In this document: positions 1 through 36,908 of the stretch, one piece after another
How the letters are laid out: every line of letters begins with the position of its first letter
Position numbering within the stretch: the stretch's first letter is position 1
From: Chiloscyllium plagiosum
Taxonomy: Eukaryota
Assembly: GCF_004010195.1 (NCBI RefSeq)
Contig: NC_057751.1
Coordinates: 16,940,550 to 16,977,457 of the forward strand
Direction of reading: 5' to 3'
Length of the DNA: 36,908 nt
Translations under genes and position numbers: made by a program
Notes under the pieces: generated by a model
Databases searched by the model: none
Told to the model about the DNA's origin: nothing
What the model saw: only the letters and a program-made list of their open reading frames with translations

Positions 1-272
1 CAGGTTAGGGTGGATTGGCCATGCTAAATTACCCATAGTGTTCAGGGATGTGCAGGTTAGGGTGGATTGGCCGTGCTAAATTACCCATAGTGCTCAGGGA
101 TGTGCAGGTTAGGGTGGATAGGCCATGCTAAATTACCCATAGTGCTCAGGGATGTGCAGGTTAGGGTGGATTAGTCAGTGGGAAATGTCGGGGAATGGGT
201 CTGGGTGGGTTACTCTTCGGAGAGTCAATGTGGACTTGTGGGGCTGAAGGGCCTGTTTCCACACGGTAGGGG
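1..272 (+). mobile_element. 3' part of an HE1/V-SINE-like SINE with about 3 tandem 52-bp internal units, cut by the window edge
   Basis: Repeats of GATGTGCAGGTTAGGGTGGATTGGCCATGCTAAATTACCCATAGTG, then the tail GGGCTGAAGGGCCTGTTTCCACAC also seen in the complete SINE at 34873-35192. Confidence 0.8.
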
Positions 273-854
273 TTGTGTGATGACGAGAGAGGATTGGGGG
301 ACAGGAGTAGGGGTAGACAGGGGGAGAGCGCACCCCGGGGCGTGTGTGTGTGTGTCTACGCACGTGTGTGTGTCTGAGGAAGGACGTTTTGGCGATGGAA
401 TGAAGGTGTGCCCAGGGTCTGACGAATGGAGAGAGACAGGATCGGGTTTTAGGATTATAATCGTGGGGAGTTCAGAAGCATCGTAGGCATTGGGGGGGGT
501 GGCAGGGAAGGGTGCTTCCTGAGTGCGGGTGGAAGCGCAGACTGATCCTTCCCTTCTCGTTCTCCCCTCCACCCCCGGCAGACGGCAAACGGATCCCCAG
601 AGTCCCGGAGCGCCGAGGAACAGCCGGGAGAGGGAGAGGACGAAGCAGAGACCCCCAATCCCTTCAACGAGCTGACGGATTGGGAACTGGAGGAGTACCA
701 GAGGGAGGTGAAACGGAAACAGCTAGGCCTGGATGGTCATGGTAACTGCTGTTGGTGCTGCGGGGAATTCCCATCTGTGGGATCTTGCTGTGCGCAAATC
801 ATGCCCCCCCCCGCTTTAACCCCTCCCAAACCATGTCCCCAGCCAATTTAAGAG

Positions 855-1727
855 CTAGACCAATGAGGGGTGTTTGTTGCCGGGTAACGTGGAAGAGGAA
901 GCGGCCATCTTAAAACCACTAGACCAATGCGCGGTGGGTGTTGCCAGGCAACACGGGAGAGGAACGCAGCCATCTTAACAGCACTAGACCAATGTGGTGT
1001 GGTTGTTGCCGGGCAACACAGAAGTGGAAGGCGGCCATCTTAACAGTACTAGACCAATGCGCAGTGGGTGTTGCTGGGTGACACGGGAAAGGAAGGTGGC
1101 CATCTTAACAGTATTAGACCAATGTGCGGTGGGTGTTGCCGGACAACGCAGGAGTGGAAGGCGGCCATCTTAACAGTACTAGACCAATGTGCGGTGGGTG
1201 TTGCTGGGTGACACGGGAAAGGAAGGTGGCCATCTTAACAGCGCTCAACCAATGTGAGGTGGGTGTTACCGGGCAACGCAGGAGTGGAAGGCGGCCATCT
1301 TAACAGCACTAGACCAATGTGTGGTGGGTGTTGCTGGGCGACACGGGAAAGGAAGGTGGCCATCTTAACAGCGCTCGACCAATGTGAGGTGGGTGTTGCC
1401 GGGCAACGCAGGAGTGGAAGGCGGCCATCTTAACAGCGCTAGACCAATGTGCGGTGGGTGTTGCCGGGCAACGCAGGAGTGGAAGGCGGCCATCTTAACA
1501 GCACTAGACCAATGTGTGGTGGGTGTTGCCGGGCAACGCAGGAGTGGAAGGCGGCCATCTTAACAGCACTAGACCAATGTGTGGTGGGTGTTGCCAGATG
1601 ATGCAAGAGAAGAACGCAACCATCTTAGCACTAGACCAATGCACTGTGGTTGTTGCCAGGCAACGCGGGAGAGGAAGGCAGCCATCTTCTGAGAGCTAGA
1701 CCAATGCAGGGTGGGTATTGCTGGGCG
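855..1727. repeat. 65-bp tandem minisatellite, about 13.5 copies, with CCAAT, RFX-type palindrome, GGAA and CCATCTT motifs; probable promoter/enhancer array
   Basis: CCAAT recurs at 860, 924, 989, 1054, 1119, 1184, 1249, 1314, 1379, 1444, 1509, 1574, 1636, 1701. Consensus CTAGACCAATGTGCGGTGGGTGTTGCCGGGCAACGCAGGAGTGGAAGGCGGCCATCTTAACAGCA. The repeat is certain; the regulatory role is inferred. Confidence 0.9.
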
Positions 1728-1893
1728 AGAAGCGTGGATGGAAAAGAAATAAAATGCTAGAATCTCTTTCTGACTCCACCCCCACCCTCCCCCATAGGCC
1801 CGGATGATGAGAACACGTCGGCGGAGATCTCCCCGCTCCGGAGTCCCCTCCCGTCGCCCGTCGGATCGCCAGCCTCTCCTGGCATGCCTGGAG

Positions 1894-2340
1894 GTAAGGT
1901 GGCACGGGGGGGCATGGTGCCCACTGGGTTTCGCCCCACAGCCCTCCCACAACATCCCCCCCCCCATCCCGGTGCCCAGGTCCCACTGCTCCGTTGTGTG
2001 GTGCTGGTGACCCATCTCTCTCTCTCTCTCTGCGCCATCTTAAGTGGGCACGTCTGCCCAGCCCGTGACCATCGCCGATCCCGCCCTCTCCAATGGGGTG
2101 AGGGCACCGTCTCTCCTCAGATCGTGAACCCCTCCCCAACCTCGCCTCCCCTAGGTCCTGGATATTTACCCCACCTCCTCCCCTCCCTCCCATCCCTCCC
2201 ATCCCTCCCATTACGCGGAAACTCTCTTCCTGTTCAGAAACATTAACGGTGTGCCTGGCGTGTCTCCATCTTGGCCCATTTCTCTCTCTCTCTCTCTCTC
2301 TCTCTTTTTTGTCGTCCCTGCTTCCCGCTCCCGTTCCCAG
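1894..2340 (+). other. Putative 5'-UTR intron of the PUR gene
   Basis: Donor GAG|GTAAGG (GT at 1894), branch-like CATTAAC at 2241-2247, long CT-rich pyrimidine tract from about 2279, acceptor CCCAG| at 2340 followed by a second CAG. Confidence 0.4.
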
Positions 2341-2387
2341 CAGCCCTAGCGCCAAGAGGAGGTCACGTTGTCGAGTACTTGTCTTTT

Positions 2388-2887
2388 NNNNNNNNNNNNN
2401 NNNNNNNNNNNNNNNNNNNNNNNNNNNNNNNNNNNNNNNNNNNNNNNNNNNNNNNNNNNNNNNNNNNNNNNNNNNNNNNNNNNNNNNNNNNNNNNNNNNN
2501 NNNNNNNNNNNNNNNNNNNNNNNNNNNNNNNNNNNNNNNNNNNNNNNNNNNNNNNNNNNNNNNNNNNNNNNNNNNNNNNNNNNNNNNNNNNNNNNNNNNN
2601 NNNNNNNNNNNNNNNNNNNNNNNNNNNNNNNNNNNNNNNNNNNNNNNNNNNNNNNNNNNNNNNNNNNNNNNNNNNNNNNNNNNNNNNNNNNNNNNNNNNN
2701 NNNNNNNNNNNNNNNNNNNNNNNNNNNNNNNNNNNNNNNNNNNNNNNNNNNNNNNNNNNNNNNNNNNNNNNNNNNNNNNNNNNNNNNNNNNNNNNNNNNN
2801 NNNNNNNNNNNNNNNNNNNNNNNNNNNNNNNNNNNNNNNNNNNNNNNNNNNNNNNNNNNNNNNNNNNNNNNNNNNNNNNNNNNNNNN
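2388..2887. other. Assembly gap (500 N)
   Basis: Run of N. Linkage of the upstream array to the CDS depends on scaffolding across this gap. Confidence 1.
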
Positions 2888-3944: not shown

Positions 3945-5160
3945 GACAGGAAAAGAAATCAAACTTTTCTCTCTCTCTCAGAGAGAAAAGGGGGGTTGGG
4001 TGGGGACAAGGTCTAGGTTTATTTTAGTGTAGGAGGGGGTCCAAAGGAAGAAAATAAATTAAACCTTTCTCTCTATATATCTCTCTGAAGAGAGACAGAG
4101 AGAAAAGGGGGTTGGGTGGGGACAAGGTCTAGGTTTATTTTAGTGTAGGGGGGGTCCAAAGGAAGAAAATAAATTAAACCTTTCCGGGACAAAATCTAGG
4201 TTTTCTTTGGGAGGGGAGGGAAGTTTTTAATGATTTAGGGTTGGGGGGGAGCCCAAAGGAGGAAAAGAAATCATGTTTTTCTCTATCGAGGTCTTCCTTC
4301 AGAGAAAGAAAAGGTGGTTGGGTGGGACAAAATCTAGGTTTTCTTTGGGAGGGGAGGGAAGTTTTTAATGATTTAGGGTTGGGGGGGAGCCCAAAGGAGG
4401 AAAAGAAATCATGTTTTTCTCTATCGAGGTCTTCCTTCAGAGAAAGAAAAGGTGGTTGGGTGGGACAAAATCTAGGTTTTCTTTGGGAGGGGAGGGAAGT
4501 TTTTAATGATTTAGGGTTGGGGGGGAGCCCAAAGGAGGAAAAGAAATCATGTTTTTCTCTATCGAGGTCTTCCTTCAGAGAAAGAAAAGGTGGTTGGGTG
4601 GGACAAAATCTAGGTTTATTTTGGGAGGGTCCAAAGGAGGAAAAGAAATCAAATTTTTCTCTATCTCTGTTCAGAGAAAGAGAGAAAAGGGGGTTGGGTG
4701 GGATAAAATCTAGGTTTTGGGGGAGAGGGAGGGAAGGTTTGATGATTTAGGGTTGGGGGGGAGCCCAAAGGAGGAAAAGAAATCATGTTTTTCTCTATCG
4801 AGGTCTTCCTTCAGAGAAAGAAAAGGTGGTTGGGTGGGACAAAATCTAGGTTTATTTTGGGAGGGTCCAAAGGAGGAAAAGAAATCAAATTTTTCCCTTT
4901 CTATCGAGGCCTTCCTTCAAAAAGAGAGAGAGAGAAAATGAGGTTGGGTGGGACAAAATCTAGGTTTATTTGGGAGGGGAGGGTAGATTTGCTGATGGTT
5001 TGGGGTGGGGGGGGGGGGGGGGGTGTGGCCGAAAAGAGGAAAAGAAAAGAAATCAAATTTTCTCTCTCTATCAAGGGCTTCCTTCAGCCCCTCACTCAGA
5101 GCAAGAGAGAGAAAGGGGGTTGGGTGGGAAAAAATAACAAATCTAGGTTTGGGGAGGGAT
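3945..5160. repeat. Purine-rich minisatellite with a 138-bp core unit and shorter diverged variants
   Basis: GGGACAAAATCTAGG recurs with a 138-bp period between about 4186 and 4614; the spurious ORF 4241-4750 repeats every 46 codons. Confidence 0.9.
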
Positions 5161-5169
5161 GGGTGTAAT

Positions 5170-5640
5170 CCTTTTTGAGAGAAAGCTGCCTCCTCCAAAT
5201 CTATTTTGGGCCAACCCTGAGCGGGAATTGTCCAGTATCCGATTTGGACCAGCCTCTTTTATTTTTTTGTTTGTTTGTTTTGAGAGGAAAATTGTGTTGA
5301 AAATCCATTTGGAGAGGCAACCATGTCTCAAAGTTCATTTGGGGGGTGGTGGTGAGAGAATTGTGTTGCAAAAGCCATTTGGGAAAATTTTGAGGGGAAG
5401 AATTGGTTTGAATAGAAAACTTCTTAAAATCCATTTTGGGCCAGCCTCTCGCTTTGAGGGGAAAATTGCGCCGCAAAGTCCATTTGGGGAAATCTTTGGA
5501 TAGCAAACCATGTCTTGAAATCCGTTTCAGGGGAATCTTGGAGGGCAAATTGCATTGAAAAATCCACTTGGGAGACTTGAGCAGATTGTCTCGATTGAGA
5601 ATTCAAAGTCTGAAATCGGGGAAGCCTGGGAGCAAATTGT
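5170..5640. repeat. Degenerate short tandem repeat with recurrent AAATCCATTT(T)GGG...GGAAAATTG
   Basis: About 8 diverged copies of an AAATCCATTTGG-like word at irregular 35-90 bp intervals. Confidence 0.55.
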
Positions 5641-8600
5641 GTTTGCAAAGAAGAAAAAAAAACTAACCTGGGGAAACCTTGCAGAGTAAATAGTCTTCAC
5701 TGCGATGTTAAAAAAAATCTGATTGGGGAGTCAAATTGTGTGAAGTTTCAGCCCCCGCAGAAGAAAGAAATGTTTTCAAAGTCGATTTGATGTCTCAAAA
5801 GAAAGATGTTTCCAAACCGAAACCTTCCAGCTAAGCAGGGGGAGAAAAATTGAGTCGCTCACAAAAATTGAGAAAATAGTATTTTTTGGGAAACAGTGGA
5901 ATGTACTATTGAGGAGGAAGAGGAGGAGGAAACAGCAGCTTGCAATAAAGAAAATGTGTGCATGTACATGGAAACAAACAATCAAAAATACAAATGGGGC
6001 AGTTTCATCTCCAAGATGAATAAACCAGTTCATTGCAAAATACACACTGTTATTTGTGGAAAAGTATCGTTGTCGCTGAAACATCAATTCAGTTTTTTAA
6101 AAGGAAGCAGTTCATTGTGACGCAAAAGAGGTTCTTAACATGAAAAGTAAGAGACGACAAAATATGACCTCGACCTGAGAGAGAAATTATTTGCAGAGAC
6201 ATCACGTCACTTGAAGCCAGCAACACTTTAGAAAAGTTCTTTTCGTATCAGACAAAAAGTTCTCATGGAATTTTTAAAAATTATTTTAAATACTGGACAA
6301 TCGAGTCATTTTTAAATTTGTTTTCGTTCTTAAGTATTTCAAATATATCTTTGATAAAAACTGTTGTGTTCCTGATGTAGAAAAATGAATGTTTTTAAAC
6401 AATCAAGTATGAAGGCTTGACATAGTCTACAGTATGGCGCTAGTTCCACATGATATCTACTGCCAGGGCTTACATGTAGAAAGGTGATTGCTAACCTCCA
6501 TTAGTAATACTTATTGTATTTTGGTCATCTGCAGTGCATTTCCCTCCCTGAGTAAGTTTGGCAGTGTTACATGTATTCTGTATAACCATTCCAATGTAAA
6601 CCATCAGCAAGGATTCTACTGCTAGTATGAACTTGTTGCCCTTGTAGTAGAGACTACTTGTAACTAGCCCAGGTGCTACTGTTGAACACACGGCATGTCG
6701 AACCCTGTAAGGAATATTCAAGTTTCTTTCTAAGCTTTTCTTTTTAAAAAGTGGCTATCCATGACATACGATTTGACTTTTCCAGACTTGAGAATGTGCA
6801 TTTGCTTTTAAACAGAATAATTGTATAAAAATTTCACGCAACCACCACTTTCCCAAGAAACATTATTTATGTGCACAAAGTTATAAGTGATTGGATAGAG
6901 TAGATGAGAAAAAAAAATTGATTAACCCAGCTTAAGCCGGCATTTAAAATCAAGGGGTCATATAGCTTTTTAGGTTTTTTTTAAATTTTGTCTTGAGTCG
7001 TGCAGGAGTTTAGGCTTTTTGAACTGTATTTATTTATTAGAAGCAGTAATTATATTTTGCAGTATTTTCACTTTAAAGGCTGTGGAGTGTTCTTTTAGAA
7101 CAGATACCGAAGCCATTCCCTGCCTGTTGACTCGAGCTGCCGGTGAGTCTGAACTGTTGTTAGCGTTTTTCCCACATTATAACGGTATTGCGATTTGTGT
7201 GCATTCACTGTGGTCCCCTCGCAAGCTTTCTTCTCTGTATTTTAAAGATCAATTTCTCCCCTAAGTAAGCCCCTCTTTAAAAATTGTGATGTGTTGTCCA
7301 AGTGTGTTGAAGCGTAGGAATCAAAGCCAGGACATTGACATCATGTTCACGATTGAACAGCTTCCAGTTTGAATGTATTCTGATGTAGACAGACATAAAC
7401 AATGTCAAGCTCTTGTCAGCTTGTAGTCAAGGACACCTGGGAGAAACTGCTGAGCAATATATATATATATATATATCACTTTAACCCTGGTGGGTAAGTG
7501 ATTACCCGCACCAGGTCTGGGTCTGTTACACTTTGTATATTTTGGTTTTCTGTTCCTTAGCCTGAGGAGTCTGTGGAGATAGTAGGATGTGCTGTACATA
7601 ACCACGTTTGAGGTTGCCATCCACCTGGGGCCAGTTTGCACCTTGTTTCTCCATTTGACCTGTCAGAAAAGCTATCTCAGCATGTTGATAAGCGGCACCC
7701 TTGTTCGGTACAGCAGTCTGCACACCCGCCAGTTAGCCTGCAGTACTGGTTAGACTCTGAGCTGAGCAGCTGCCGCTCGGATTAAATAGGTCAGATGTGC
7801 TTTCAGTACAACCAAGAGATTGCCTTTTCGGCAGCATTGGGAATACAGGGAAGGCTGACCTTCCAAGGCAACGCGAGCCAGGTTACTCGTTACGCATGTC
7901 CGGTATTCAGCAGATCATCTCACTCAGTATGCTCTGTTCAATATCAACTTATGTTTTTTTTTCAAGAAAAGTAACGTTACTCAAAACGAAAGTATACAAA
8001 GTGAATGGTCCAGATATTTTCCACTGTCAAGAGTATCTTCTACAGACACAGTGCAATAGCCTCATTTAGCAATCATTTTAAAATTAGTTCAGAGAGCTTG
8101 CATATACAGCAACCTTTATGTGTCACTATCGGTTCTGCTGTGTGGTGACATAGTATTTTTTTTAAATTCTACACAGTGGGTAATGAATTTTAAAAAGGCT
8201 TTTGTTAATGTGGGATTTTTAAAATCTCCTTCTGCTTTTTTTAAAAAACCGATTGTAGAATATATTTTATACAAATTTCTAGACTTGATTTTAAGGCCTT
8301 TTTTAAAAAAAAAAATGCAGATGAAAGTTTCCTGATCAATTATTGAGCCGTTTGGCTTTGTTCCCTTCGTTGCTAATGATGTGCAAGGCAATCGAGCCAG
8401 TTTGGTGACATTCCAAGTTCTGCGAGCTTACATGTAAGCTGCTAAAACAGAAATAGCTGAGCGTGAGTGGAAAGGACCCTTCGCTTGGCTTGCTCGGTGC
8501 ACATTGAACTGAAGGGCAAAGCCTCTTTTCAGTGTTCCTTTCTGATTTCCTTTTAAATGTGCAGCAACTTGAGGAAAATGAAGGCTTCAAGGAGCCTCTT

Positions 8601-10747
8601 TGCATAGCTGGGCAATGGGCTACTGAACTTCACTGCGCTCCACTAGGACTGCAGTCCTAATCCCAGTCTTTGGTTCCTAAGTTAATGTCTCAGATGGATG
8701 GACAGCATCCCCCCCCCCCACCACCACCATGTGTCCCAGAGCTGCAGATGTGGGATGGGTGATTGTCCGAAAGTGCCACTTCTGGTCTCTGCAAGTACTG
8801 AGGGTACTATCTGTGGTGCTCGAGATGCAGAACTATTTCAGGTGCAACTCACTTTATCTGAAGTTACCAGCCAGCACTCTAGGCTGATTCTGTCTGAATA
8901 ATAAGCTTCCTTTTAGGAGTCCAAAAGTGGAGTTTGGCTGTGGAAATGTGAAGATTGTCAGAATGAGGGACAATCTGAATTTGTTGTTTGCCCTATTCCT
9001 CTGTATTGGATCGGTGTTAATGCACATTTAAGAAAACTAGCTGATCTTCTGCGGTCTAAACCACTTGATTTGTTGGTGTTGAGCGGTGTGGAAAGAGGAA
9101 GCAGAATGAAGAAAGATGTGTCTCTCATTGGAGAAGCCTTTTCAGAATCCAGTTCAGGGGTGGGGGGGGGTTTGTGGGGGGGAAGAGATATGATTAATCT
9201 TGTACATATGTGTACTTAATCCAGCCATGAAAATAAAAGAGAGCTGCAACTTAACAGATTCTATTTCAGAAATATCGTAGCCCTCTTACTGAGAAGTAAT
9301 GTATAGAAGGGAGAGGGGGAAAAAGTCTTGTCGGCTTCTGTGGTTGTTGGTGTCTGAATTACCATGGGGTACCATGCTGTTGGGTGTAAGTTGGTTATGT
9401 AAGCAGATCAGCGAGGCCTGCCCCTTCAGGCACCCTCAGTGAGTCCCAGCAAAGTGATTGCATAGCGCCTGGAGTCTATGTTTTTAAATAAACTAACCAG
9501 ATGTGTAGGTTGCAGAATTTTAAGGATTTTCTCATTTCAAAATATTTTTTGAAAATTGCAGTTCCCGTGCGCCCCTCCGTTAACTGATCTTGAGACCAAC
9601 TAGCCGATTTCCAGCGAGCAGCTCCGTGGGTGTTCTGTGTGATTAGGTTGAGCAGTGGCGATTTGTACACTTTGATGCCCGAGTCACTTGTTAAGAAAAA
9701 GAGACTCCTTACCCGGCTTGTCAGATTCCTCAAAGTCCCGTGTCCTTAGACTGTGCTGCAAGTACTTGGAACGTGTCCGTGCTCTTTGGTTCGAGTGCTT
9801 GTGGCTCATTGGTTAGTTCAGTCATGCTCGGCCGATGGGTAACGAGCTGTAAAGCTGCCTGGGCATGTAACACCAGCGCGCAAGTGAATACAGTGGGTTG
9901 TTGCTCGCCCCATGCCTCCTGGCGCCTCTTGCGACCAATTATTGACCCTGTTGTAGGGAGCTGCAGTTTGGGATTTCTCGTGCCGGACCTCCACCCTTGC
10001 AGTCCTCCTGATCCTGATCCCTCTTTGGGTTGTTATTTGCCAACGTACACCTGGCCCGTGGGTAGGGGAGGTGCGTATTTCTGAAGTAATCACTCGAGCA
10101 GTTCATCAGTGCTATCGAGTAGAGCAGTGTTTAAGTGTTCATGATGTCCGGTGATTTCACTCGTAATGAAGTAAGCTTTTTCCTGCATTTGTAAGTTTAA
10201 GCTGAATCTTGACACATGGAGAGATACCAATGTGTGTAAATGATGAGCTAGTAATCTATACTTAAAAGATACAAATTATACTTGATCTACTTTAGGTATT
10301 TTGGTAATTGACTAAAATTGCTACTTTTCTTTGTCTTGGTTTGAGTGATTCACAGTTCTGGTTTTTTTTGTTTTATGCGTTATTTATAGTTTCTCCTGCT
10401 CCTCCTTTTCAAAACATCTCAATGTGTTAGCTGAGAGCCATGCAGCCAGCTCCCACATTCCTACTTGGATTATTCCAGCCAACAGTTGCTGAGACAGGCC
10501 AGTCCGAGTCGGTCTTTCAACGTTGCATATCCCTTTGTCGGTGAGTTTCAACAGGCGTGCATGGACTTTCTCAGCAAGAAATTACCTCAGACTGAAAGGC
10601 GCACACCAGGATGCCCCTCTGCCACCAGACCCTGGTTGGCAGTGCCAGTGTGGTCCCCTGAAAGGTCTGAAGCTCAACATTTTGAAGCCCAGTCTCCTTT
10701 GCTAGTCGCTGGGCCTGTTTGGAACTTTGGAAGGCTTTTACCATGTG

Positions 10748-11107
10748 TTAGAAAGTTGTAATCTCGCATCCCCTGCAGCAGTTTGATGACACGCTCGGTC
10801 TGGCAACCCCAGGGCGCATGTCCCATTCACTGCCGCTGCTGCTTTCGGACTCTGGTATCTGCCAGTCTCCACCTTTACCCATCAGCTTGTTGAGGATGGC
10901 CCAATCCTCAGCATTCGGTGCTCCTGTTGCTGCCCGCTGCTTTGGTCTACCGTAATCATGTTCGCCATAGAAGTCAATCGCACGGATGCCAGAGTCCAGC
11001 ACCTGCCCCGGCACCTTTGGGGGTCTTTTTGCCCCCCCATGGGTCGAGGCAGGTCCACCAGCTGATTGAGTGAGTAAACTGCCCCGTTCCCCAGTTCCTG
11101 GGGCCAT
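10748..11107 (-). CDS. Hypothetical 119-aa antisense ORF (unknown protein or decayed coding fragment)
   Basis: ATG with A at -3 and G at +4, GC-rich patch in AT-rich surroundings, coding-like codon usage; no homology recognised. Confidence 0.2.
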   Translation of the reverse strand: MAPGTGERGSLLTQSAGGPASTHGGAKRPPKVPGQVLDSGIRAIDFYGEHDYGRPKQRAATGAPNAEDWAILNKLMGKGGDWQIPESESSSGSEWDMRPGVARPSVSSNCCRGCEITTF

Positions 11108-14100
11108 TCTCGAATGGTGCAAGTGTGTGCTATTTCCCCCCGGGACAGCTCATTTTAAATCATTTAACCCGCTTGTATATGGCAAGAAGAATAAAAAAAC
11201 AAGTTAGCATATGGTAAATTGTTTAAAAAAAAAAGGGTTGAGCTTGCTCTCCAGGAGCACACGAGGCCACGTGTCCTCTGTTGGAGAGCAGCAACTCCAC
11301 ATAGTTAATGGTTGTGTCTTCATTTTGTAAGTGACACTGCTAGGAAGGGGGGCATGTTAGTCATGGAACCAGATGGGTAACGCTCATTACCCTGTTAGCA
11401 CGGCATGGCCAGAAACCATTCCTGCCTTTAAAATGCAGTCAGTCGGATTCAAGGCGCCAGGTCATCTTAACTGGCTGGTGACCCTCCCAGTTTTCTTGAG
11501 TCTTACCCAGCTGACTTGCGGTTCTAATGTTGTGCGCCTAGCTACCTCTCTGATTTCTGTTGTATTCCACTTGGAAAAAAAGAAATGTACAGTCGCATCT
11601 GCTTGTATTGTTTTTTTGCCATGTACATTAGGCTCCGACTGATACGCGGTTAAATTAGTGGCAAGATTTGTGAGAAGTTGCTTCGTGACAAAACAAATGA
11701 TGAATATTGACATAATATAGTTAAATATGTACTGTGAGTCTTTTTTTTATATATAATAGATTTTTAAAGAGATTTGAGTTTGTTACCCACTTCTGATCAT
11801 TGTGTGACGCTGTATCAATGGTCTGTGTGCTTAAAGGTCAAGGAAAAAGGTTGGGTCGGTTTTATTTGGTGAGGAAAGGTCAGGCAGCAAAGGTTGAAAG
11901 CCCTGCCTTTGTGATTTGGCTGGTATTGTCTGCCTTTCTGTAAAGAATTGATATTTCCATGGGTTGAAAACAGCTGGGGGGGCTTCATTTCCAGGCTGCT
12001 GATCTTGATAGTCTGTCAGCAAACAAGATTCTGGATTTCTACATCTTGCCTGCTGCTCACTCGTACTCTCAGATAGGGCATCCTTGTCGATGTGCCACAA
12101 GTATCCCCTGTACTCACTCTCAGGCCCTCTGCCAGCCGGTCTCTCGGTCGGAGAGGGGGCTTCTGTGCGAGGTTAAAGTGATTCTCGACTCTCAGGAGCT
12201 TAGCCTAGCTCTGGTACCTTATCCAGGAGAGGTTCAAGGCTTCCTGTTTATATTGGTCAGGCGGTTTCACATATTCCAGCACAGGTTTGAATCCGAGGTG
12301 TGGGTTCTCCAGGTGATTTGGAACTGCACTGGATGCCCGAGTCTTGAGTGGGAGGGGGATGGCAGCCTCAACGGGAAATGAAAGTCTGGTAGCTGAGGAC
12401 AAACCCAAGCTTCCAAACAACATGCCTGAGGGTTTGGCCCAAGTTTCAGACTGATTGTCTGTGTGTTATGGTAGCCCAAGACTGTGCGATCCAAAACCAC
12501 TCAACTTGCTTCATCGTTTCAAGTGATGAAGATCTTTCCAAACATAGAGCAGACTTCTTCACCTCAGAGGTCTCGGTGTGTTTTTTTGAACCATGATAAT
12601 TGTTGGAGCACCAGGTTGTATTCGGCCTTGGTCAGTCAGATATCTTAACATTTGCAATTTGCTCAGTTTGAGTTTGACCATTCTTCTGATTGCACAATTT
12701 CTTTTTTTTTTTGCTGTTTTAGTTTTATTTTGGAAGAATTTAAACCCGAAAGAAACAAAAGCTTTTTTACTTGACCTTTAAAATGGGCATTTATCAGAAA
12801 AAGAAACACTAACTCTTGTGTGCAAACTATTTCAAGACAACTTGACTAAACTGCCTTTTGAATTCTAATCAACCCCATGTTCTGTTCACTTAGAAAGTTT
12901 GAAGTGCCTATTGTGCCGAATGGGAAATTAGGCTTGTCAAACAGAAAAGCCTGGATGTGTAGAGGAGAGTAATATGGCATCCATCTTTTGCATTAATCGC
13001 TTAATCCTTGCACCCACTTCAGCTCAATGTGAAGAGATTGCTGCGTTGGTATAAGTATTTCTGGATTTGCTGTTGATAAGTGTGCTAACTTACTCCTAGT
13101 TATGACAGAAAGCATGAGCAGAAACCTGGTACAACACAGCCATGGGGAAGGGGGTTGGGGGGGGAAACAAGAGGGCTTATGGTATTACCGTTTGCCTCTT
13201 CCTTCCATGAATTTGGCACAAAAAAAGCCCCAAAACGTCACTCACTGTCCTAACAAAATGGGAAGCTGGCGTCCTGTTGTGCGCAAAAGGGGGTCTCTGA
13301 GCTCTGACCACGGAATCCGAACCCTTTCACCCGAGCGAATGTCTAATCCCTCCCTCCTCCTTCCCTCATTGACACGATTAACAGGCTCCTCCTGACCTCG
13401 CAGGTAGTTTTCATTTCAAACACTAACGGGACCCACCCAGCCTCCGGCGGGTGAGTTGGAAAGCAGCGAAATCTCTTGACTTGCATTGAGCGCCTTGCAC
13501 TTTATTACAGCTCGTTGAGTGTTGCGTCCCTCCCCACCCGCCCCCCCACCCAGCAGTGGGTCGCCCACCGTGCCGGCGTTGGCCAGCTCGCTTAGCCCCC
13601 AGCCAGAAGAGCACAAACCCCGTGAAGGGCCGCTTTGGATGGTGAAATAGCCTTCCCCTTTCCCACCCAACAACCCCCCCCCTCCTTCCTCCTGAAAGCG
13701 GCAGGTGGGCTAACTCGGGGGCCCAAGTGAAGCGAGCAAGTGGGAGAAAGGAAACATAAACAACACAAGTCCTGACGTACGAGTCTGTCTTTCCAGACAA
13801 ATGTTTATTTTTTTACATGGAGCATTGTTGAATTTGTGCAAAAAAAAAAGATATATTATATTCCGTTTTAAAAATGAATCATATAAACCCACTCCACTGC
13901 ATTTTGAGACGTTGAGGGGTGGGCTCGGGAGGGGGGAGGGGGATGTTTGCCGGCGTGCAAGCCTTGCAGGGGCCACCCTCCGGTCCGGAAAGTCGAGCCC
14001 AGTGCAGCATCCATGACTCCCTCCCTTCCTCGCCCCCCTGCCGCACTGCACAGGCGTCAGGTAGACCAGGGCATTGAGCAAAGGGCTGCCCCATACTCAA

Positions 14101-14679
14101 GAGTGGGCGGTAAGGCGCACCTCCTGTTAGGGGTTGGCCTTTTGTGGGAACGAAAATGCTCTTGTTTAACAAGTGCCGCTTATTTAAACAAAACCCACGT
14201 GGTTTCTCGAAAACAAAATTGAGTCCCATTTTTCATCCTCCCTCCCAAGCGGGAGTTAAATCAGTGAGATCCCATGAGCGCTTTAGATGACTACTTTTTT
14301 GACTTAACTCTGATGCTGATATCAGGGTCTTCACTTTTGGTGTTATTTTGTTACAGTTGGGTTTGAAGTAGAGAGAGAGAGAGTGAGTGAGTGCTACCAA
14401 ATTAAGCCTGTGACTTTCCAAGAAACACAACTTTTCCTGCTGTGGTTTTAATGTGTTGCCTCATTAAAAAAAAACTAAAAATCCTAAATTGAGCAGTGAC
14501 TTGCTGTTTGTAAAGTGTATCTGAAACGTAATGTGCATGACGTTGCATGGGGGGTGCACAGATATTAATTCTGGGCTTGCACGCTGGTGTAAGTGAGTGC
14601 TGCCTGTTGAACAGTGTGCAGTATTTATTCTAACTCCAGTTTTTTTTTTGTTAACAATGATCCACCTTTATTTGTTACT

Positions 14680-14685
14680 AATAAA
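14680..14685 (+). terminator. Candidate distal polyadenylation signal AATAAA
   Basis: CTAATAAAACC preceded by T-rich sequence and followed by GT-rich sequence; transposon relics begin about 200 bp later. Confidence 0.5.
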
Positions 14686-14898
14686 ACCGGCATTGCAAAG
14701 GAAATGTTTCATGTTAAAGTCAGCGTTTCGCGACCGCCACTTCCCCCTGGGCTTGGGCTGGCCTTCACAATTGTCAGGGGTCGGCCCATTCGCCAGCGGG
14801 TACCACACGCACCCCCCTCTCAACTCGATCCCTCGCCAACAGTTGGAAAAGCACAACAGGTCAGGCAGGAATCGTTGCTTTTGCCCCCCCCCCCAAAA

Positions 14899-16730: not shown

Positions 16731-17447
16731 GAGTGGATCAGAATGCCTGCAGTATGGAAACAGGCCCTTCGGCCCAACAAGTCCACACCGACCCTCCGAA
16801 GAGTGACTCACCCCAGACCCATTCCCCATATTTATCCCTGACTAATGCACCTCACACTATGGGGCAGCCAATCCACCCTAACCTGCACATCCCTGAGCAC
16901 TATGGGGAGTGGATCAGAATGCCTGCAGTATGGAAACAGGCCCTTCGGCCCAACAAGTCCACACCGACCCTCCGAAGAGTGACTCACCCCAGACCATTCC
17001 CCATATTTATCCCTGACTAATGCACCTCACACTATGGGGTAGCCAATCCACCCTAACCTGCACATCCCTGAGCACTATGGGGAATTTAGCACGGCCAATC
17101 CACCCTAACCTGCACATCCCTGAGCACTATGGGGAATTTAGCACGGCCAATCCACCCTAACCTGCACATCCCTGAACACTATGGGTAATTTAGCATGACC
17201 AATCCACCCTAACCTACCTAACCTGCACATCCCTGGGCACTATGGGTAATTTAGCATAGCCAATTCACCCTAACCTGCACATCCCTGAGCAATATGGGTA
17301 ATTTAGCATGGTCAATCCACCCTAACATGCACATCCCTGAGCACTATGGGTAATTTAGCATGGTCAATTCACCCTAACCTGCACATCCCTGAGCACTATG
17401 GGTAATTTAGCATGGTCAATTCACCCTAACCTGCACATCCCTGAGCA
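16731..17447 (-). mobile_element. V-SINE 3' tail duplicated in tandem (176-bp period), followed by a 52-bp satellite that runs into the gap
   Basis: GAGTGGATCAGAATGCCTGCAGTATGGAAACAGGCCC at 16731 and 16907; 52-bp units continue to 17447. Confidence 0.85.
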
Positions 17448-25663: not shown

Positions 25664-28600
25664 AGATTAGATTCCCTGCCGTGTGGAAACAGGCCGTTCA
25701 GGCCAACCAGTCCACACCGACCCTCCGAAGAGTAACCCACACAGACCCACTTCCCCTCTCACTAATGTACCTAACACGATGGGTAATTTAGCATGGCCAA
25801 TCCACCCTAACCTGCACATCCCTGAGCTCTATGGGTAATTTCGCACGGCCAATCCACCCTAACCTGCACATCCCTGAGCACTATGGGTAATTTAGCACGG
25901 CCAATCCACCCTAACCTGCACATCCCTGGGCACTATGGGTAATTTAGCACGGCCAATCCACCCTAACCTGCACATCCCTGGGCACTACAGGGACAATTTA
26001 GCATGGTCAATCCACCCTAACCTGTACATCCCTGGGCACTATGGGTAATTTAGCACGGCCAATCCACCCTAACCTGCACATCCCTGGGCACTACAGGGAC
26101 AATTTAGCATGGTCAATCCACCCTAACCTGTACATCCCTGGGCACTATGGGTAATTTAGCACGGCCAATCCACCCTAACCTGCACATCCCTGAGCACTAT
26201 GGGTAATTTAGCACGGCCAATCCACCCTAACCTGCACATCCCTGAGCACTATGGGTAATTTAGCACGGCCAATCCACCCTAACCTGCACATCCCTGAGCA
26301 CTATGGGTAATTTAGCACGGCCAATCCACCCTAACCTGCACATCCCTGAGCACTATGGGTAATTTAGCACGGCCAATCCACCCTAACCTGCACATCCCTG
26401 AGCACTATGGGTAATTTAGCACGGCCAATCCACCCTAACCTGCACATCCCTGGGCACTATGGGTAATTTAGCACGGCCAATCCACCCTAACCTGCACATC
26501 CCTGGGCACTATGGGTAATTTAGCACGGCCAATCCACCCTAACCTGCACATCCCTGGGCACTATGGGTAATTTAGCACGGCCAATCCACCCTAACCTGCA
26601 CATCCCTGGGCACTATGGGTAATTTAGCACGGCCAATCCACCCTAACCTGCACATCCCTGGGCACTATGGGTAATTTAGCACGGCCAATCCACCCTAACC
26701 TGCACATCCCTGGGCACTATGGGTAATTTAGCACGGCCAATCCACCCTAACCTGCACATCCCTGGGCACTATGGGTAATTTAGCACGGCCAATCCACCCT
26801 AACCTGCACATCCCTGAGCACTATGGGTAATTTAGCATGGTCAATCCACCTCAACCTGCACATCCCTGAGTACTATGGGTAATTTAGCATGGCCAATCCA
26901 CACTAAGCTGCACATCCCTGAGCACTATAGGTAATTTAGCATGGCCAATCCATCCTAACTTGCACATCGCTGAGCACTATGGGTAATTTAGCATGGTCAA
27001 TCCACCTCAACCTGCACATCCCTGAGTACTATGGGTAATTTAGCATGGCCAATCCACACTAAGCTGCACATCCCTGAGCACTATAGGTAATTTAGCATGG
27101 CCAATCCATCCTAACTTGCACATCGCTGAGCACTATGGGTAATTTAGCATGGTCAATCCACCTCAACCTGCACATCCCTGAGTACTATGGGTAATTTAGC
27201 ATGGCCAATCCACACTAAGCTGCACATCCCTGAGCACTATAGGTAATTTAGCATGGCCAATCCATCCTAACTTGCACATCGCTGAGCACTATGGGTAATT
27301 TAGCATGGTCAATCCACCCTCACCTGCACATCCTTGAGCACTAAGGGTAATTTAGCACGGCCAATTCACCCCAACCTGCACATCCCTGAGTACTATGGGT
27401 AATTTAGCAAGGCCAATGTACCCTAACCTGCACATCCCTGAGCACTATGGGTAATTTAGCGCAGCCAATCCACCCTAACCTGTACATCCGCGAACACTAT
27501 GGGTAATTTAGCATGGCCAATCCACCCTAACCTGCACATCCCTGAACACTATGGGCAGTTTAGCATGGTCAATCCACCCGAACCTGCACATCCCTGAGCA
27601 CTATGGGTAATTTAGCATGGTCAATCCACCCTCACCTGCACATCCTTGAGCACTAAGGGTAATTTAGCACGGCCAATTCACCCCAACCTGCACATCCCTG
27701 AGTACTATGGGTAATTTAGCATGGCCAATCCACACTAAGCTGCACATCCCTGAGCACTATAGGTAATTTAGCATGGCCAATCCATCCTAACTTGCACATC
27801 CCTGAGCACTATGGGTAATTTAGCATGGTCAATCTACCTCAACCTGCACATCCCTGAGTACTATGGGTAATTTAGCAAGGCCAATGTACCCTAACCTGCA
27901 CATCCCTGAGCACTATGGGTAATTTAGCATGGCCAATCCACCTGAACCTGCACATCCCTGAGCACCATGGGTAATTTAACATGCCAATCCACCCTAACCT
28001 GCACATCCCTGAGCACTATGGGTAATTTAGCAGGGCCAATTCACCCTAACCTGCACATCACTGAGTACTATGGGTAATTTAGCATGGCCAATCCACCCTA
28101 ACCTGAACATCCCTGAGCACCATGGGTAATTTATCATGCCAATCCACCCTAACCTGCACATCCCTGAACACTATGGGTAATTTAGCATGGACAATCCACC
28201 TTAACCTGCACATCCCTGAACACTATGGGTAATTTAGCAGGGCCAATTCACCCCAACCTGCACATCCCTGAGCACAATGGGTAATTTAGCATGGCCAATC
28301 TATCCTAACTTGCACATCCCTGAACACTATGGGTAATTTAGCACGGCCAATCCACCCTATCCTGCACATCCCTGAACACTATGGGGCAATTTAGCATGGC
28401 CAATTCACCCTAACCTGCACGCTCCTGAGCACTATGGGTAATTTAGCATGGCCAATCCACCCTAACCTGCACATCCCTGAGCACTATGGGTAATTTAGCA
28501 CGGCCTATCCACCTTAACTTGCACATCCCTGAGCACTATGGTAATTTAGCACAGCCAATCCACCCTAACCTGCTCATCCCTGAGCACTATGGGTAATTTT

Positions 28601-29190
28601 TCACGGCCTATCCAGCCTAACCTGTGCACCCCTGAACGCTATGGGTAATGTAGCACGGCCTATCCACCCTAACCTGCACATCCCTGAACACTATGGGTAA
28701 TTTAGCACGGCCTATCCACCCTAACCCGCACATCCCTGAGCACTATGGGTAATTTAGTATGGCCAATCCACCCTAACCTGCACATCCCTGGGCACTATGC
28801 GTAATTTAGTACGGCTAATCCAGCCTAACCTGCACATCCCTGAGCACTATGGGTAATTTAGTACGGCCAATCCATCCTAACCTGCACATCCCTGGGCACT
28901 ATGGGTAATTTAGCACGGCCTATCCACCCTAACCTGCACATCCCTGAGCACGATGGGTAATTTAGCATGGCCTATCCACACTAATCTGCACATCCCTGGG
29001 CACTATGGGTAATTTAGCATGGCCAATCCACCCTAACCTGCACATCTTTGGACTGTGGGGGGAAACCAGAGCACCCGGAGGAATCCCACATAGATATGGG
29101 GAGAATGTGCAAACTCTGCACAGATAGTCGCCCGAGGCTGGAATCAAACCTGGGACCCTGGTGCTGTTGTTGGGCCTTTGTAACCAGTGT
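25664..29190 (-). mobile_element. Single V-SINE inflated to about 3.5 kb by an internal satellite
   Basis: Tail at 25664-25778; conserved central domain and degenerate tRNA head at 29047-29190; satellite in between. Confidence 0.8.
25779..29046. repeat. 52-bp satellite, about 63 copies
   Basis: Unit ATGGGTAATTTAGCACGGCCAATCCACCCTAACCTGCACATCCCTGAGCACT. Confidence 0.98.
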
Positions 29191-36496: not shown

Positions 36497-36908
36497 AGAA
36501 TCACAGAACCCCTACAGTATGGAAACAGGCCCTTTGGCCCAACAAATCCACACTGACCCTCCGAAGAATAACCGCTGGCCTACTACTCTGCATGTCCCCT
36601 GACTAATGCACCTAACCTACACATCCCTGAGCACTATGGGTAATTTAGCATGGCCAATCCACCCTAACCTGCACATCCCTGAGCACTATGGGTAATTTAG
36701 CATGGCCAATCCACCCTAACCTACACATCCCTGAGCACTATGGGTAATTTAGAACAGCCAACCCACCCTAACCTGCACGTCCCTGAGCACTATGGGTAAT
36801 TTAGAACAGCCAACCCACCCTCACCTGCACATCCTTGAGCACCATGGATAATTTAGCATGGCCAATCCACCCTAACCTGCACATCCCTGAGCACTATGGG
36901 TAATTTAG
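36497..36908 (-). mobile_element. V-SINE tail followed by the 52-bp satellite, continuing beyond the window
   Basis: GTATGGAAACAGGCCC tail, then 5 or more units. Confidence 0.88.

Follow-up and report, generated by a model that had tools for sequence, protein, structure and literature searches.

The 65-bp minisatellite of the bamboo shark Chiloscyllium plagiosum that was analyzed here is located within an intron of the beta-adducin gene (ADD2-like), and it is not the promoter of PURB. The window, i.e., the whole stretch of 36,908 nucleotides that was analyzed (NC_057751.1, positions 16,940,550 to 16,977,457), had been described in an earlier note as containing a promoter array that could act as a copy-number dial beside PURB. 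In contrast, the array lies between two adducin exons on the plus strand, and it takes up 83% of the intron between them (Table 1).

Table 1. Features of the window, their positions and strands, and the evidence for them.
Feature	Positions	Strand	Evidence or remark
ADD2-like coding exon A, 53 codons	582..741	+	AG acceptor 580-581, GT donor 742; tblastn of P0003-P0007
Adducin intron holding the array, 1056 bp	742..1797	+	GT...AG ends; RefSeq proteins join exons A and B; spliced contigs from two studies
65-bp minisatellite, 13 full units and a partial 14th	855..1727		Tandem Repeats Finder, unit splitting at CCAAT
Adducin coding exon B, 96 nt, phase 1-1	1798..1893	+	tblastn; contigs X13 and X15 cover exactly this exon
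YY1-type word 2033-2041, GC box ~2081-2086, CCAAT 2090-2094	2033..2094		Adducin intron between exons B and C
Alternative adducin exon C	2338..2387	+	Tandem CAG-CAG acceptors 2338/2341; C-termini of P0003, P0004, P0006, P0007
Gap, exactly 500 N	2388..2887		The other gaps of the window have 215 and 384 N
Intronless Pur-family gene, 305 aa	2937..3854	+	PURB-type N- and C-terminal signatures

With tblastn, C-terminal parts of adducin proteins were matched to the three exons A, B, and C, with canonical GT-AG ends. The translation of 582-740 is 98% identical to a beta-adducin-like protein of Chiloscyllium punctatum, which was the one match among 16 candidates, and six members of the adducin protein cluster are named, which come from C. 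punctatum and C. plagiosum. The C. plagiosum protein XP_043537069.1, which is marked as partial, stops at the gap, and where the sequences of C. plagiosum and C. punctatum differ, at three residues, it is identical to the window.

Splicing was observed in contigs X13 and X15, which stem from two studies. Their left loose end past exon B is the end of exon A. The contigs sit exactly on exon B with the end of exon A attached, and therefore the intron that bears the array is spliced out. Neither X13 nor X15 had a contig over the array end or the intron; contigs show presence only, so this was not counted. The right loose end, 236 letters long, is the start of the terminal exon of isoform X1 (P0005), which encodes 88 residues and closes in a MARCKS-like basic tail. 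This terminal exon was not found anywhere in the window, though it is joined to exon B in the contigs.

Several additional observations were made for the 3' part of the adducin gene. Contigs X13 and X15 bypass exon C and proceed to the terminal exon. The C. punctatum RefSeq isoforms X2 and X3 use one CAG acceptor of exon C each, and they end without the MARCKS-like tail. Exon C of the window enters the gap before any stop codon. The accessible part of an adducin review contains nothing on a truncated form of ADD2. At position 1885 the window has a T, which gives a Met codon. A C is found there in run X1 (DNA) and also in contigs X13 and X15, encoding Thr like the proteins of C. punctatum. The T may be due to a private allele or to an error of the assembly, or else the species differ at this site. 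The C. punctatum model GCC42296.1 (P0007), which comprises exons A, B, and C, is encoded on a contig of 1714 bases, but the three exons span at least 1806 bases in the window, and therefore the C. punctatum assembly has shorter introns, with fewer units or a collapsed array. The single sites that had been listed at 2033-2041 and 2090, and an AAGATGG at 2934 over the ATG, are all present. However, the sites at 2033 and 2090 are located in the next adducin intron, and the sites at 2033..2094 are not homologous to the array unit (nhmmer).

Tandem Repeats Finder placed the minisatellite at 855-1726, with a period of 65, 13.5 copies, 83% matches, and no indels, which agrees with the approximately 13 copies noted earlier. 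In each unit, RRCCAATS is followed after 11 bp by a 13-bp RFX-type palindrome, then by a purine-rich linker with GGAA, and then by GCCATCTT. When the array was cut at CCAAT, the earlier counts were reproduced, i.e., CCAAT at 14 of 14 unit positions and CCATCTT in all 13 full units, and the distance between CCAAT and the palindrome is 11 bp in 13 of 13 units. Units 4, 6, and 8 form a type B, with 2-6 mutual differences and 9-15 differences from units 3, 5, 7, and 9. The type-B units alternate with type-A units, resulting in a 130-bp dimer. Units 9-11 are only 1-3 letters apart. The greatest divergence is seen at the edges, in units 1, 12, and 13, of which unit 12 has decayed, as had been reported. 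No second copy of the unit was found elsewhere in the 36.9-kb window (nhmmer, with no match of E < 0.35 in the rest of the sequence).

The independent DNA run X1 contains both array junctions (contig records 1, 3, and 4). Record 3 contains the end of unit 1, followed by a stretch whose five differences match unit 2, and the right array end is covered by records 1 and 4. The comparison with sequencing data covered 4 of 24 listed runs and positions 1625-2387 of the window. In run X1, 14 records add up to a depth of 12-14 over units 13-14 at 88% likeness, among the matches listed. In one contig with a depth of 3, a type-B unit directly precedes a terminal-type unit, an order that does not occur in the window, and GGAT replaces GGAA. 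The unit order of this contig hints at a second allele; both the second-allele order and the GGAT are tentative because the contig depth is low.

Twelve common classes of promoter motifs were scored, using consensus words in general use or from the earlier note. NF-Y, RFX, and YY1 words occur together in 11 of the 13 units. When unit 10 was shuffled 20,000 times with its dinucleotides kept, three or more of the 12 motif classes were found in 15 of the shuffles; among 6,923 background windows of 65 bp, none had as many. The array contains 19 RFX words on both strands, and the remainder of the window has none. With the context taken into account, 12 of 13 units carry a fitting YY1 word, 65 bp apart, so that the array is a YY1 cluster by sequence, for which the accessible part of one paper gives the definition of at least three cgCCATntt words, with one lower-case mismatch allowed, within 500 bp (PMC2665242). 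By its words, the unit is a real promoter-like NF-Y/RFX/YY1 module. An ETS site had been proposed as a fourth component. GGAA is indeed present in 12 of 13 units, but ETS was dropped because only one of 13 units has the strict ETS word, and the rest of the window contains it 42 times. The composite motif pattern had no matches in viral contigs. In metagenome contigs, nine single non-tandem matches were obtained, two pairs of which were nearly or fully identical; they were taken as chance matches because none of them had a similar unit repeated.

The palindrome fits the RFX consensus in 8 of 13 units on the plus strand and in 11 of 13 on either strand. The earlier list of X-box-compatible palindrome variants had omitted the commonest variant (units 4, 6, and 8), which fits the RFX consensus on the minus strand only. 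In the palindrome, the X-box consensus tolerates 9 of the 13 transitions that are possible, and 15 of 39 substitutions. X-box-compatible variants were rejected as proof of selection, and they are weak evidence because 9 of 13 transitions stay compatible anyway.

A preset test of the earlier note was whether the motif columns are more conserved than the spacers. They are, with 21 of 29 motif columns being invariant versus 10 of 36 spacer columns (Fisher p=4e-4), and the difference is retained when non-CpG columns alone are counted (21/24 versus 9/21, p=0.002). In a circular shift test, which keeps the clustering, 1 of 65 shifts scored as low. Among the distinct substitutions 2 of 41 break a motif, both in unit 12, versus 11.6, 11.0, and 8.2 breaks that were expected under three nulls (P = 5e-5, 5e-5, and 5.5e-4, respectively); these nulls are base-matched and CpG-matched, and a faster change in low-complexity linkers lies outside them. 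Each single motif is weakly protected, with no break versus 2.5 expected for NF-Y (P=0.05) and one break versus 4.1 expected for RFX (P=0.02). YY1 alone has one break versus 1.7 expected (P=0.46), with CCATCTT invariant in 13 of 13 units. The longest invariant run in the array is not unusual (P=0.15).

An array of 52-bp units at 25775-29046 was used as a control. Its CCAAT is kept in 42 of 59 units and lost in 17, and the 5 breaks versus 7.9 expected do not represent a significant sparing (P=0.10). The 52-bp unit, which we take to be a piece of a shark SINE, is found in four separate tandem arrays of the window (1-172, 17042-17447, 25775-29046, and 36611-36908), one of them with 63 copies, and its CCAAT word is not spared from mutation.

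All four consensus CpGs of the 65-bp unit have both TG and CA variants. The decay affects 8 of 8 CpG columns versus 13 of 31 other C/G columns (p=0.003), and transitions at CpG-type columns make up 17 of 41 changes. The observed/expected ratio of CpG is 0.62 in the array, 0.63-0.71 in the flanks, 0.38-0.43 in the window background, and 1.06 in the PUR ORF. The decayed CpG columns and the ratio of 0.62 point to past methylation of the array in the germline, unlike a constitutively open island. Gene bodies are usually methylated in the germline.

Our tentative preference is that the array is a factor-bound, enhancer-like intronic element akin to the YY1 repeats of Peg3. An ancestral 65-bp NF-Y/RFX/YY1 module with fixed spacing was amplified to a minisatellite in one of the late introns of beta-adducin in the shark. 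Early rounds of amplification resulted in the diverged edge units, and later rounds in the A/B dimer and the near-identical central units. The array is removed from the adducin mRNA by splicing, and mutations have accumulated in the three linkers, with the binding words being spared. The simplest reading of this sparing would be selection for factor binding, and the array may then serve as a clustered binding platform, enhancer-like or looping, in some tissue or at some stage. Its candidate target would be a promoter nearby, i.e., that of PURB or adducin, or an antisense start. The intronic position and the joint occurrence of NF-Y, RFX, and YY1 words in 11 of 13 units are in agreement with an enhancer-like role, and so are the 2 of 41 motif-breaking variants versus 8.2-11.6 expected, a sparing that is not seen in the control array. 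The Peg3 intron repeats and the L1 Tf monomers could be regarded as precedents. However, the decay at all consensus CpGs, the weak protection of each motif alone, and the clustering-keeping test, in which 1 of 65 shifts scored as low, argue against it. Furthermore, the locus and the motifs were chosen after the fact, and low-complexity linkers may mutate faster.

It is also fairly likely, though less so than the enhancer-like reading, that the array is a neutral intronic minisatellite, the unit of which stems from a dead promoter-like scrap, i.e., an old promoter or a transposon fragment. The sparing would then be due to fast CpG-rich, low-complexity linkers, to block-wise homogenisation, and to the choice of the case after the fact. 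The decay of all consensus CpGs, the large number of CpG-type transitions (17/41), the ordinary length of the longest invariant run (P=0.15), and the loss of two motifs in unit 12 would all be expected for a neutral array, and the possible second allele with a different unit order, from the one depth-3 contig, would also fit. However, the sparing holds outside of CpG columns (p=0.002) and under the CpG-matched nulls, and it is absent from the control array. In addition, the window contains no second copy of the unit, and the summed depth over units 13-14 in run X1 is only 12-14, among the matches listed.

On the sequence evidence, it seems doubtful that an NF-Y/RFX/YY1 module of the housekeeping-promoter type is kept by purifying selection in each unit and serves PURB or ADD2 as an enhancer, or as an antisense promoter, that is tunable by copy number. 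If this were so, a cartilaginous fish would offer a titration series, made by nature, of a composite promoter grammar. We consider it quite unlikely that the array is a promoter within the adducin gene, internal or antisense, in which each unit may start transcription, with an antisense RNA being most plausible, or else a short non-coding sense RNA. The composite promoter-type words with fixed spacing would be suitable for this, and tandem L1 Tf units can be promoters, according to the accessible parts of two studies (PMC11602158; PMC9022269). However, the CpG decay is of the methylation type. No retrotransposon body follows the units, as it does in LINE-1 monomer arrays; the adjacent sequences are adducin exons, with ~110 bp to exon A and ~70 bp to exon B. 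When exon B is read directly, its earliest ATG does not share the reading frame. An ATG in frame is present at 1884, but each of the three covering runs has ACG there. The strand of the YY1 words had been taken as a pointer to minus-strand initiation, but the motifs of L1 Tf and Peg3 are also printed as GCCATCTT in the accessible parts of the respective papers, and therefore the direction of transcription cannot be read from the strand on which the YY1 word lies.

The relation of the array to PURB depends on the gap that follows exon C. Joins made by 3d-dna receive 500 N, and the gap is probably a scaffolding placeholder. According to the accessible part of its description, the white-spotted bamboo shark's assembly was made from short reads with Platanus and ordered by Juicer/3d-dna (10.1101/602136), and we infer that the window stems from this assembly. 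The DNA contigs of run X1 have zero cover at 2223-2387. The terminal adducin exon is absent from the window, and therefore it is probably hidden in the gap, along with the 3' UTR and the actual promoter of PURB, unless the missing exon is on another assembly piece. The sequence that has to be located in the gap or elsewhere comprises about 270 coding bases of adducin, the remainder of exon C, the 3' UTR, and the promoter of PURB.

By its sequence signatures, the Pur-family gene downstream of the gap is most likely PURB. In a tree of 26 of the 120 listed Pur proteins, none of them from PURG rows, it is placed on the PURB side, without starred support. A PUR orthologue of C. punctatum was not among the best 120 of 815 matches, and therefore the synteny of ADD2 and PURB is unconfirmed in a second assembly. 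Just 3' of the PUR stop codon, 138-bp copies (3.2 copies, 99%), 100/236-bp repeats, and a strong G skew were observed at 4186-4902, which represent a recent duplication of the 3' region or an assembly artefact. The region of ~5000-14700 after the intronless ORF has no listed tandem repeats and contains AT-rich blocks; it is possibly a long 3' UTR. In the present assembly, the distance between the array and the PUR ORF is 1.2 kb, and this apparent closeness depends on the placeholder gap. A linkage would be in agreement with the records of the adducin and PUR proteins, both of which refer to contigs of 19,796,287 bases. That the array is an amplified PURB core promoter and a copy-number dial directly upstream is highly improbable, since this short distance is opposed by the splicing of the array out of the adducin RNA, by the intervening exons B and C, missing terminal exon, and 3' UTR, and by the even 500 N of the intervening gap versus 215 and 384 for the others.

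If the array is functional, the theme of tandem YY1 sites known from Peg3 and the L1 monomers would gain a shark example with a composite unit of NF-Y, RFX, and YY1. The array would also be a ready-made system for studying the effects of unit number and motif spacing on transcription, and the sparing of motif columns within an array could be used to flag regulatory minisatellites without a second genome. If the array is neutral, the lasting result is that it is intronic in ADD2 and that its closeness to PURB hangs on a placeholder gap.

In the literature surveyed, which covered few subscription papers, no minisatellite with a YY1, NF-Y, and RFX unit and no report on ADD2-PURB synteny was found, and there was nothing on vertebrate first-intron YY1 tandem arrays as such or on RFX/NF-Y/YY1 motifs with directional initiation of transcription. 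Judged by title, none of the papers on shark intronic minisatellites deals with this locus.

Regulatory VNTRs and minisatellites of vertebrate introns and promoters form a general class. The shark array resembles them in its GC-rich 65-bp period, its variant units, and probable allele differences, although its length polymorphism is hinted at by one depth-3 contig. Intragenic repeats that keep their organisation and factor motifs, including YY1, have been described for ICCE and DXZ4, as far as the accessible part of the paper goes (PMC6125249). However, those are kilobase-scale CTCF macrosatellite units that are tied to the inactive X, while the shark unit has 65 bp. In the mouse L1 Tf monomers the YY1 sites act synergistically (PMC11602158), and sense and antisense activity of mouse L1 monomers has been reported (PMC9022269), both according to the accessible parts of the papers. 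The 5' UTR of L1 Tf, as presented there, is similar to the array in having head-to-tail promoter-like monomers with one YY1 word each, a variable number, and possible synergy. In contrast, the shark array has no LINE body or ORF1 alongside, it is a single locus as far as seen, and its unit is 65 bp long.

The closest likeness seems to be with Peg3, the first intron of which has tandem repeats with about 10 YY1 sites, according to the accessible part of the report (PMC4196374). At the Peg3-DMR, as in the shark, an intronic tandem repeat carries ~10-13 YY1 words of the GCCATCTT type, and the motif is kept while the other letters drift. The shark array differs in its location, since it is in one of the late introns, towards the 3' end of the host gene, and not beside a known start site. 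Furthermore, the shark unit adds NF-Y and RFX words at fixed spacing. Of the systems compared, the array would be most like the first-intron repeats of Peg3.
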